From the IMG/VR virus record IMGVR_UViG_2529293045_000016: DNA of 14,298 nucleotides. One strand, 5' to 3'. Shown here one piece after another: positions 3,001 through 6,000 of this stretch. A program made the position numbers. Source of the stretch: a virus. Lineage: Duplodnaviria > Heunggongvirae > Uroviricota > Caudoviricetes. Positions within the stretch are counted from its first letter, which is position 1; each line of letters starts with the position of its first letter.

Positions 3001-6000
3001 ACGTTTGGTAATAACGTTTCCATTATCGCGTCCTCAACAATGAATTTTGTGATGCAGTGCCTGGTGCCTCCAGGTGACGTTAACCAGTTAACAATTAACG
3101 CCGGATACAGAGAATCCACCCATAACACTGTTTTTGGTTTTAACTGTTCCGCGTGCGCTTAGCCGCATTCACCGCATCACAAAATTCACTTTAAAAAGGG
3201 CGGCAGAGCAGCCACGGAGTAAAACTGATACCGCCAAACGTCACCAGAAAATTGATAACAGAGGGCGTTGCAGCGGGGTTGTCACTTAAGCGTATGGTCA
3301 ACCTGACAACCCGGTGTCCTCAATGGGGAAGGAATAACCCCGCCATACTTACCGCCGCGCCATTTCGCGGAGTGCCACAACCGGAAGCGCACGTTCGAAG
3401 AAATCTAACGACAAGCCTTCTAAGGGAAAGAGCTTCGCCGTACGCTTTCGCGTTATGCACTGACTTTTCAGGGAAATATCCTTTCAGTAAACTGTCAGTA
3501 CCGGATTCTTATCCGTGTCCGGCGCACGACCACACGTGACAGCGTGTTGGTCTCCATTTTTAACCCAGAACCTCAATGGAGGATAAAATGCCAAACAAAA
3601 AAGAAATCCGCTTATTGAAAAACAGATTGAATGCCTGGTAAATCAACTCAGGCAATCAGGGTTATTAAAAACTCATTCAGAGTTGAGGCTCACAGAATCA
3701 GCATTCGACGATAAATTAAATAATGTCCTTTATAATGGCATTATTGATTTTAATCGTTCTGTTGGTCGCCGCGGCCCTGCTGGTGTTTCCTTATAATTAC
3801 CAGTCAATCCAGAGTGGACCGTGTTCAGCGTAAATATAACTGTACACATCCAGATTATATTTGTGGTCTGTTAAGAACAGGCCGCAAATACATGCCGAAG
3901 CTTCCAGTGCAGCGGCTCTGTTACTGAATAACCATGTAGCAACATTCCAGCGTTTTTCTGCATCCCAGTCTTTCTCAAGGCCTGATACCATGAAGAAACC
4001 GTTAGTGTTGCCATCAAATAATTCTGTTTCCAAATTTTTAAGCAATGCCTGATGGACTCTTGCCAGGTATTCCGCCGGAATTTCGCCACGAATTCTGATG
4101 AGATTGTCATAAACAAACATGTTCCCCGCATATGGCGATTTTTCTTTCTTGTTTTTTAAACCAGCATCATGAGCAAACTGATCAATTTCTTCTTCCGTTG
4201 GTTTCGTATTGATGTTTTGCGCTGTCGTTTCTGCAATTTTATTTGCCACACTCTCTGAGTCGTGTTTATTTATAGACGCACAGAAATACAATCCGGTAAA
4301 CGCATCGCGCACATTACGAGCCATATTATCAGTGTCTTTTTTCGTTACCGATTCCAATTCAAGTTCGTTCAGACGATGACGAAGTGTGTGTGCTGCAATC
4401 TCCTGGATTGAAGGAGGTAAATCTTTAAATTCCATCGTCAACCTCATCAGTCAGTGTTTCTGGCTAACCAGCGACGCGCGCCAGCTTCAGTTTTAAACGT
4501 TTTGCTTTTGGTATACGTCATCGCGGTGAACGTACCGTCCTGGTTGGGGAACACGCCACATACCAGAGATTCGTTGTTGCCAAGATTGAGCGTATCCATG
4601 TTGACCTCATTTCCCCTTAACGCCGGGGTAGCGGAACAAAAACCTGCTGCATAGTTATTAAAGTTGAACCCTGCCGTCATGTTCTTACGCCTCGGGCTGG
4701 CTACTTAACCCCTGACCACTGCCTGGTAACTCGAAGTATTGCCCTGCATTCTGTGGGGCGGGGTGAGGGAATGAATGAAGTTTAGAAAAACGAACATTTA
4801 AGGTCAATGTTTTTTTATCAAAACATTTTAAGCAGGCAGCTGTTACGCCATCACTACGATGGCATACAGTTAATCAAATAGATGAGGTTGGTTAAATATC
4901 TTGTTGAATTTTAAAGCATACTCCCAATATGCAAGATAGATCATCCAGCATAATTGAAGGGTAGCGAGGATTCGTGGGGACTAAAAGAATATCCGGCCCT
5001 TCTATCTCCAGTTTGCGAATGACAGGCGTTGTGGTCCCTTTGGGTAAGGCAAGGACAATATTTCCTGGTTGTACGATTCGATCGGGATCAACAAAAACTG
5101 TTGAACCATTTGGGATGGAAACTCCACCACCAGATGTCGACATACTGTCACTCTCTAGAACAACAGCAAAGGTATTGGCCGGGATTTCTCCGACAAGCTG
5201 CACACAAGAGGTTATTGAGGAATTTTTCATATAATCACTCCAGCTTGCTGCCTGCTGAAGTGATAGTAGCGGAACCGTTTTTATCGGCGGTAAAGATAGA
5301 TCAAGCGAATCACCTGTATTTAACTCTCCTCCATTAAGAAGCCAATTTTCGTTTACTTTCAATATCTTTGCCAGTGAACTTATGTAACGCGAGGACGGCG
5401 CTCCTCCACCGTTCATCCATTGACTTACGGAGCCTTTTGATGCGCCAGTGGCATTGACAAGGTCTTTGCCTTTCAAGTTTAGCGCATGCATACGTTGGGT
5501 TATGCGTTCAGATATTGTTTGCTTGTTCATGTTTTGATTTTAAAACACAGATGGTTTTGTTTCTTGACTTTCTTTGGTTTTGATTATTAAACTTTTGGCG
5601 TTCAGTTTTATGGAGCGACTCATGAAAAAATCAGAAGTATTAGGCTATTTTGGCGGAGTTGTTAAAACAGCCGCCGCTCTAGGAACGTCAAAAACCACAG
5701 TCAGCATGTGGGGGGAAGACGTTCCGTGGAAATGGGCGTTGCTAATTCAGGCAGTCACTGCCGGGGCGCTCAAATATGAGTTACACATACCGACGGTTGT
5801 CATTCCCGATTCTGATCATAATCCGCCTTCTAACCAAGGGGGGATTCATGAAAATCAAGCATGAACACATCCGCATGGCGATGAATGCCTGGGCGCGTCC
5901 TGATGGCGAAAAAGTTCCGGCAGCTGGAATAACCCAGGCTTATTTTGAGTTGGGTATGACGTTTCCTGAACTGTACGACGACAGCCATCCGGAAGCCCTG

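Follow-up and report, generated by a model that had tools for sequence, protein, structure and literature searches.

The window analysed here, IMG/VR record IMGVR_UViG_2529293045_000016, is a 14,298-nucleotide stretch of viral DNA (Caudoviricetes). On its minus strand, two open reading frames (ORFs) at 3797–4680 follow an operator-like sequence, and an earlier note had read them as an unrecognised two-gene module coupled by overlapping stop and start codons. We find that the locus is very probably the promoter-proximal part of a dicBF operon, which is the equivalent of the leftward early (PL) operon in a Qin/Rac-type defective lambdoid prophage of enterohaemorrhagic Escherichia coli (EHEC) type. 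The first ORF is a homolog of ydfA, the second encodes an uncharacterised protein of 212 residues, and the two do not form a coupled module. The evolutionary unit, as judged from sequence comparison, instead appears to consist of the C-terminal domain (CTD) of the 212-residue protein and a small convergent gene of 69 codons, which we call p69.

Organisation of the locus

The window represents a lambdoid prophage of EHEC type. Over the 1.4 kb that surround the two ORFs, 565 complete E. coli genomes contain a chromosomal prophage with 99.9% identity, with O157:H7 and O121 strains among the best matches listed. In strain TR01, the flanks of the element carry a frameshifted integrase, a truncated recE and insertion sequences, and the prophage is therefore defective.

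The minus strand reads, in order, repressor, operator/promoter, ydfA homolog, 212-residue gene, dicF leader, DicF, dicB and a ydfD-like gene. The leader (3250–3587, ~340 nucleotides) is conserved in an alignment with the K-12, BL21-like and STEC316 loci and is homologous to the untranslated region between ydfC and dicF of K-12. It is followed by the DicF small RNA with its terminator (3198–3249; Rfam RF00039, 75 bits against a gathering score of 48). The Qin dicBF operon of K-12 shares the repressor, the operator/promoter, ydfA in first position, the leader, DicF, dicB and a gene at the ydfD position; its polycistronic transcript begins upstream of ydfA, and YdfA, YdfB and YdfC are uncharacterised (PMC5069750, PMC10448788). 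The K-12 operon differs in that ydfB and ydfC take the place held here by the 212-residue gene and p69, and YdfB and YdfC belong to other PHROG families than these two. Operons of this kind occur in most E. coli genomes, with several copies in EHEC, and their DicF and DicB products influence cell division, metabolism, phage resistance and virulence regulation.

The control region (4779–4826, minus strand) contains a PL/dicBp-like promoter and a palindromic operator, found in a promoter scan by consensus match only. The sigma-70-like promoter reads TTGACC-17-TAAACT, with the -35 element at 4807–4802 and the -10 element at 4784–4779, and is overlapped by the palindrome ATGTTTTTTTATCAAAACAT at 4807–4826. 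Relatives of this palindrome recur in the intergenic region between repressor and cro, at 5529–5547 and 5577–5592. The adjoining gene at the cI/DicA position (4892–5530, minus strand) encodes a 212-residue repressor with helix-turn-helix and Peptidase_S24 domains (Pfam HTH_3 and Peptidase_S24, the latter at 8e-13; PHROG transcriptional repressor); its span is partly annotated as a LexA family protein in TR01. In this it differs from K-12 DicA, a protein of 135 residues (408 nucleotides). By analogy with dicBp of Qin (PMC10448788), the site is a putative promoter and operator. The promoter, the shared palindrome and the adjoining repressor together bear out the earlier description of an operator resembling the leftward operator (OL) of lambda, followed by the first genes of the leftward operon. 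That no N-like protein is encoded also holds, as Pfam and PHROG searches return DUF1391 and families of unknown function, and the translations have no visible arginine-rich stretch. From the promoter to the DicF terminator, which itself scores at 3215–3200, a terminator scan of the minus strand found no terminator-like site.

The first gene is ydfA with an allele-specific extension

Neither ORF had been assigned to a family in the earlier note, which remains correct for the second gene (no Pfam, NCBIfam, PADLOC or PDB match) but not for the first. The 77-codon ORF at 4447–4680 matches Pfam PF07151 (DUF1391) with 102.1 bits (E = 1.2e-29, cut-off 27.3) over model positions 1–47 of 48 and residues 29–75 of the ORF. 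Its product is 87% identical to K-12 YdfA by tblastn, and the gene is the first after the DicA-position repressor and the promoter, in agreement with K-12.

The length of this gene was checked by comparing the 150 nucleotides upstream of the ATG of M28 in 49 distinct alleles. In many of them the region is interrupted by in-frame stops or frameshifting insertions and deletions, and only its last ~10 codons, with a GAGG Shine-Dalgarno sequence, are conserved; the M28 start itself is preceded by GAGG-N5-ATG. K-12 YdfA has 51 residues and a start equivalent to M28, and RefSeq calls a 50-residue protein (153 nucleotides) here. The K-12 counterpart of the extension is located at the promoter or ahead of it, and no usable start follows the promoter there. 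Only the last 50 codons are conserved, and the 77-residue form, which we have dropped, is therefore an allele-specific over-extension. Thus the 77-codon ORF exists as first described, but the conserved gene comprises just 50 codons (4447–4599, minus strand), and the preceding 27 codons (4600–4680) are most likely 5' untranslated region. The protein accordingly resembles the DUF1391 family over the whole model, in position and in its core of 50–51 residues, and differs in the open but non-conserved extension of this allele. The ratio of nonsynonymous to synonymous substitution rates (dN/dS) of ydfA is 0.10–0.18.

The function of the YdfA family is unknown (PMC10448788), and a literature search for DUF1391, Ybl81 and YdfA found no functional study. 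Residues 34–66 of the 77-codon ORF weakly resemble the head decoration protein SHP/gpD (PDB 1TD0), a match that is not significant (phmmer E = 0.1), and ydfA homologs are labelled 'head-DNA stabilization protein D' in some phage records. We dropped the idea of a decoration-protein fragment because of this E-value.

The 212-residue protein is a mosaic

The second minus-strand ORF (3797–4447) could encode 216 residues, beginning MRLTMEFKDL, and shares one base with the ydfA stop codon in the sequence TGATG. However, MEFKDL is the start in all PHROG profiles and all homologs, and where the gene does not follow ydfA, as in the Salmonella locus L003, it lacks the upstream ATG; the coupled 216-residue form was therefore dropped. 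The protein of 212 residues starts at the ATG at 4435, 11 nucleotides after the ydfA stop and behind GAGG-N6. The gene proposed earlier is therefore real in this form, but the one-nucleotide overlap ascribed to it belongs to the longer ORF. The only names given to it in the sources are 'hypothetical' and 'Ybl81'.

Searched with a profile, 1.84 billion representative proteins yielded only 55 hits, with a single cluster matching over the full length. About 45 of these match residues 1–50 or 1–90 alone and then continue into unrelated C-termini of 42–286 residues, such that the N-terminal domain is joined to at least ten different C-termini. This helical domain (residues 1–90, MEFKDLP...; 4166–4435, minus strand) recurs in many proteins of early regions and is shared by five PHROG families over residues 5–55 or 5–79. 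The CTD (residues 96–212 and the stop codon; 3797–4150, minus strand) is an α/β domain in the AlphaFold2 (AF2) model, and no relative of it was found in PDB or BFVD. Two distant homologs match around it, P0153 over residues ~68–194 and P0139 over ~100–192, both with a different N-terminus and 25–28% identity overall. Measured against the window allele, dN/dS is 0.4–0.8 for the N-terminal domain and 0.14–0.22 for the CTD. The protein is therefore a mosaic in which a rare C-module under constraint is joined to a shared N-module that evolves fast.

The AF2 model of the whole protein has a mean predicted local distance difference test (pLDDT) score of 69. It places helices at residues 8–24, 32–55, 60–73 and 81–90 of the N-terminal domain and gives the CTD the order β-β-α-β-β-α-β, with block-mean pLDDT of about 50–83 and core elements mostly above 70. 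Among alleles with near-identical CTDs, the N-terminal domains differ by 1–5 nonsynonymous and no synonymous substitutions, too few for significance; this pattern is compatible with diversifying selection or patchy recombination.

Some relatives of the N-terminal domain lie in Stx phages, far from ydfA. They are the only relatives among the isolated phages of INPHARED, in which the full-length gene was not found, and a scan of GTDB species representatives yielded no relative of the 212-residue protein.

The 212-residue gene is not tied to ydfA

The 156-nucleotide ydfA core occurs at 6568 sites, distributed over 3817 of the 5426 complete E. coli genomes, as against 568 genomes with a full-length 212-residue gene. 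Any match to the latter, including hits to its first ~50 codons alone, is present in 843. It occupies only 6 of 84 sampled intervals between ydfA and the dicF leader. Conversely, among 91 loci with the CTD that were fetched with enough downstream sequence, ydfA lies somewhere upstream in 81 and is absent from 10. Homologs free of ydfA lie in Cox-type elements and in Salmonella elements, where a repressor of Mu or XRE type precedes them. Nor do the two genes have the features of a type II toxin–antitoxin system, as Pfam and NCBIfam place neither in a toxin–antitoxin family and their co-occurrence is weak. By these counts, the pair is largely absent as a conserved unit from related prophages, contrary to what was first proposed.

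The CTD and p69 evolve as a unit

p69 lies on the plus strand at 3588–3796, outside the interval that was first described. It was placed by alignment with TR01 and belongs to phrog_4274 (1e-51; protein WP_001133037). The gene ends at 3796 and abuts the stop codon of the 212-residue gene (3797–3799) stop to stop, and its Shine-Dalgarno and start context lies within the 5' end of the dicF leader, on the opposite strand.

p69 stands beside the CTD in 88 of the 91 loci. Pairwise identities of the CTD and p69 are correlated with r = 0.97, a value partly expected from physical adjacency, as compared with 0.77 for the N-terminal domain and the CTD and 0.42 for ydfA and the CTD. With a dN/dS of 0.19–0.27 for p69, both members are under purifying selection. 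The pair is always convergent, abutting or overlapping, and keeps this arrangement in four contexts, namely after ydfA in E. coli, in Salmonella elements lacking ydfA, dicB and DicF, and in two Cox-type elements. In the loci L007 and L212, p69 homologs overlap distant CTD proteins convergently and retain the motifs SGLLK, FxxKL and RRGxPAGVxL. The CTD protein of the P0153 pair (L007) is 25% identical overall and its p69 52%, while the CTD protein of the P0139 pair is 28% identical overall; Rfam DicF was not found in the elements carrying these distant pairs. Furthermore, a recombination breakpoint splits the N-terminal domain from the CTD, and never the CTD from p69. Co-occurrence, co-variation, selection and the distant pairs therefore indicate that the evolutionary unit is the CTD with p69, and not ydfA with the 212-residue gene.

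In the window itself p69 is frameshifted, with six A residues at 3597–3602 where the TR01 alignment has seven, and therefore at most the effector half of the pair is intact there. The exact 90-nucleotide stretch containing the A6 tract occurs in at least four complete genomes among those listed, and at most 6 of 605 genomes are at least 99% identical over it. The run of six A may reflect a genuine null allele, an error in sequencing the homopolymer or a tract liable to slippage; the normal p69 protein would be regained by a -1 slip there.

Two further features of the p69 region were considered and dropped. The first is an alternative-frame ORF of 36 codons, hydrophobic in translation (MSFIMALLILIVLLVAAALLVF...; 3723–3833, plus strand), which lies inside p69 and spans the stop–stop junction. 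The E. coli and Salmonella alleles have this frame open, the distant alleles of L007 and L212 do not, and the ORF is therefore probably a by-product of the p69 sequence rather than a type I toxin. The second is a structured RNA in the ~90 nucleotides upstream of the small convergent genes, which are conserved and contain three inverted repeats (window 3500–3590, plus strand; L003 5814–5900 and 6500–6560; L212 6046–6135). The last repeat is able to pair with the Shine-Dalgarno sequence (CTCCAT...ATGGAG), and the middle hairpin has another sequence in K-12 and L212 yet still pairs there. However, no compensatory changes were seen among close variants, and folding gave z-scores of just -2.5 and -1.8.

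A hypervariable cargo slot lies between ydfA and the dicF leader

The arbitrary IMG/VR contigs from which the slot was sampled were found by a conserved 29-mer of the dicF leader. Their 84 intervals fall into 19 configurations, of which 27 intervals are K-12-like (ydfB-ydfC), 6 are empty, 6 carry the 212-residue gene and the rest contain other genes. The stretch is thus a hypervariable cargo site, as the earlier note had supposed. Several other variants show the same arrangement, an MEFKDLP-type gene whose C-terminus is different and, after it, a small unrelated gene in convergent orientation, and the start context GGAGGATAAAATG beside the dicF leader is shared by no fewer than six unrelated small genes. 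Two such units are arranged in tandem in Salmonella, of which the second consists of a 119-residue protein and a 64-residue gene (MSEQELKL...), which are paired in E. coli as well.

Some of the variants have cargo of other kinds. A convergent 94-residue slot gene in the IMG/VR locus L151, with the p69 start context, scores 21.2 bits against Pfam GhoS, the type V antitoxin endoribonuclease (cut-off 21), a sequence match that suggests antitoxin-like cargo at the slot. Antisense slot genes in other IMG/VR loci (L109, L101, L106, L072/L082/L086) encode predicted membrane proteins of 148 and 130 residues and proteins of ~170–217 residues that resemble a coiled coil with a zinc ribbon; these larger genes have no Pfam or PADLOC match.

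Searches for function

Pfam, NCBIfam and PADLOC return nothing for the 212-residue protein or p69, and PHROGs only families of unknown function. No hit at E ≤ 1 was obtained in PADLOC-DB v2 for YdfA, the 212-residue protein or p69, and PDB sequence searches, with single sequences and with profiles, gave nothing significant. A Foldseek search of the CTD against PDB and BFVD found no match at E ≤ 0.001. Its best hits had the Prp/YsxB-like cysteine protease fold (E = 0.006–0.02, template modelling score ≤ 0.42), but were rejected because the putative catalytic residues of the close family, Cys182 and His205, are not kept in P0153 and P0139. Neither the 212-residue protein nor p69 was found in the literature searched. 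The profile hidden Markov model and structure searches that the earlier note had called for thus identify the first gene as DUF1391 and leave the second without an informative family or fold.

A possible effector and partner

The dicBF operon and the YdfA family are already known, and the 212-residue gene is uncharacterised, swappable prophage accessory cargo. The undescribed system sought at the slot is to be found here in so far as this gene is uncharacterised; the surrounding operon is well known and the pairing with ydfA fails. What is new is modest but concrete, namely a conserved convergent pair of CTD protein and p69 without known relatives, with slot variants that share the constant N-module and the small-gene start context. 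The promoter-proximal dicBF genes have no known function, and a cargo slot with a selected convergent pair in several kinds of enterobacterial prophage offers a concrete target.

Our preferred explanation as a whole, a dicBF operon whose slot holds a mobile CTD/p69 cassette that acts as effector and partner, is held tentatively, at somewhat less than an even chance. The mechanism that we would attach to it, with the 212-residue protein as an early effector and p69 as its cognate antagonist, is doubtful. Synthesis of the 212-residue protein would await release of the OL-like operator by the repressor, on induction or infection, and the protein might act through its CTD on a target in the host or a competitor; p69 would be its cognate partner. 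Because the genes converge without spacer or terminator, mutual antisense reading and expression in opposite regulatory states are expected: transcription from PL would run antisense through p69, and p69 transcription would enter the effector gene at its 3' end, also in antisense. In the lysogen p69 could serve as an antagonist or 'immunity' factor that holds the CTD inactive by protein binding, by antisense interference or by both. If this is correct, the two would represent a new protein family pair without known fold relatives and would explain selection on part of a 'cryptic' prophage. If it is not, the cassette is ordinary prophage accessory DNA.

Several observations weigh against effector and antagonist roles. 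The r = 0.97 owes something to adjacency. Three of the 91 loci lack p69 and retain only its start context beside an intact CTD gene, which indicates secondary deletion of p69, and a truncated p69-hit pattern like that of the window occurs in 11 of the 88 fetched loci. Since the CTD gene remains intact in loci where p69 is lost or frameshifted, p69 must be dispensable, at least in a repressed prophage. No convincing p69 promoter was found, the sole consensus hit of the promoter scan overlapping the p69 start codon. Pairing across the slot is not strict, with one C-terminal type seen with two different small genes and some types with none. Finally, the AF2 model is only moderate for the 212-residue protein and poor for p69, which is modelled at pLDDT 58 as two helices with a disordered tail; no fold relative hints at an activity.

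Some of the same observations would be accounted for if the 212-residue gene and p69 were independent accessory genes ('morons'), kept together only as neighbours in a small piece of DNA, the one a dispensable early protein and the other a separately expressed lysogen gene. The losses of p69 and the C-terminal type with two small genes fit this explanation, as does the fact that the slot gathers many unrelated antisense genes, membrane and zinc-ribbon proteins among them. However, mere neighbours would hardly keep a convergent geometry over four contexts and down to 25–28% identity of the CTD protein (52% for the L007 p69) while all their surroundings were exchanged, nor would the breakpoint be expected to respect the CTD/p69 junction and fall between the N-terminal domain and the CTD. 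We therefore regard independence as rather unlikely.

An anti-phage role in the lysogen must also be weighed. Lambdoid phages commonly carry exclusion genes near the immunity region, such as rexAB of lambda and sieB of P22 and Rac, and the CTD protein and p69 could be a lysogen-expressed defence or abortive-infection pair with a Rex- or SieB-like role, triggered by superinfection. Their position adjoining the immunity region is the usual site for such genes, and purifying selection on genes of a defective prophage is also consistent with this possibility. Like rexAB and sieB, they are accessory, exchangeable genes beside the immunity switch, and p69, being antisense, would be shielded from early transcription. 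In contrast to these systems, with which they share no homology, the cassette has no detected promoter or terminator of its own: the 212-residue gene lies in a repressor-controlled operon without an apparent promoter and with no terminator-like site before DicF. Moreover, there is no PADLOC hit, membrane segment or nuclease or NTPase motif, and the Pfam, NCBIfam and PDB searches were empty. On this balance a defence pair seems improbable.

A broader version of the effector–partner explanation would make the slot an exchange site for intracellular polymorphic effector/partner cassettes. A constant MEFKDLP... 'adaptor' expressed from the early promoter would carry recombined C-terminal effectors, each with a convergent small antagonist from the GGAGGATAAAATG start context; CTD/p69 would be one such pair, and the set would be the means by which related prophages or superinfecting phages compete. 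The architecture itself, a constant N-terminus with alternative C-termini, is present, as five PHROGs share the N-terminus. Pore-forming colicin operons and other polymorphic toxin–immunity loci likewise combine a constant N-terminal part and an exchangeable C-terminal domain with a small partner gene directly downstream, which in pore-forming colicins is also on the opposite strand. Unlike those loci, the 212-residue protein and p69 have no sequence or fold similarity to such toxins, no secretion signal and no lysis gene, and their pairing is not strictly one-to-one. We consider such a set improbable as well, although it would, if real, be a phage-borne analogue of bacterial polymorphic toxin–immunity systems.

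Least credible is a translationally coupled system of ydfA and the 212-residue gene acting as a unit in exclusion, anti-defence or toxicity, since, although the genes are adjacent, co-oriented, 11 nucleotides apart and under one promoter, and ydfA lies upstream in most CTD-bearing loci, ydfA has a roughly tenfold wider distribution and mostly precedes other genes, the 212-residue family occurs without it, ydfB or ydfB with ydfC intervene in some loci, ydfA and CTD identities correlate poorly, and the stop/start overlap is not the conserved junction.

Neighbouring features

Downstream of DicF, dicB (2835–3023, minus strand; 62 residues) carries the annotation 'cell division inhibition protein DicB' in TR01, whose locus is 99.9% identical. 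Its ORF matches phrog_1251 over residues 36–97 and is 67% identical to K-12 DicB by tblastn. The gene at the ydfD position (2650–2838, minus strand) encodes a DUF1482 protein according to the TR01 RefSeq annotation and belongs to phrog_1092.

A core of ~200 nucleotides of the dicF leader (for example CCGCGAAATGGCGCGGCGGTAAGTATGGC; window 3250–3530) is kept in a Cox-type element without an Rfam DicF (L212 6100–6400), and the leader may therefore serve more than the role of a DicF precursor. In the Salmonella locus L003, which carries a 200-residue homolog of the 212-residue protein, three C4 antisense RNAs and two isrK copies lie near Phage_ASH genes a few kb downstream of the cassette (8251–9576), which points to a P4/Gifsy-like regulatory region. 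In the right arm of the window prophage, a sok antisense RNA at 10458–10632 (plus strand; Rfam, 113 bits) marks a hok/sok type I toxin–antitoxin locus, and a Hok/Gef protein is annotated at the same position in TR01.

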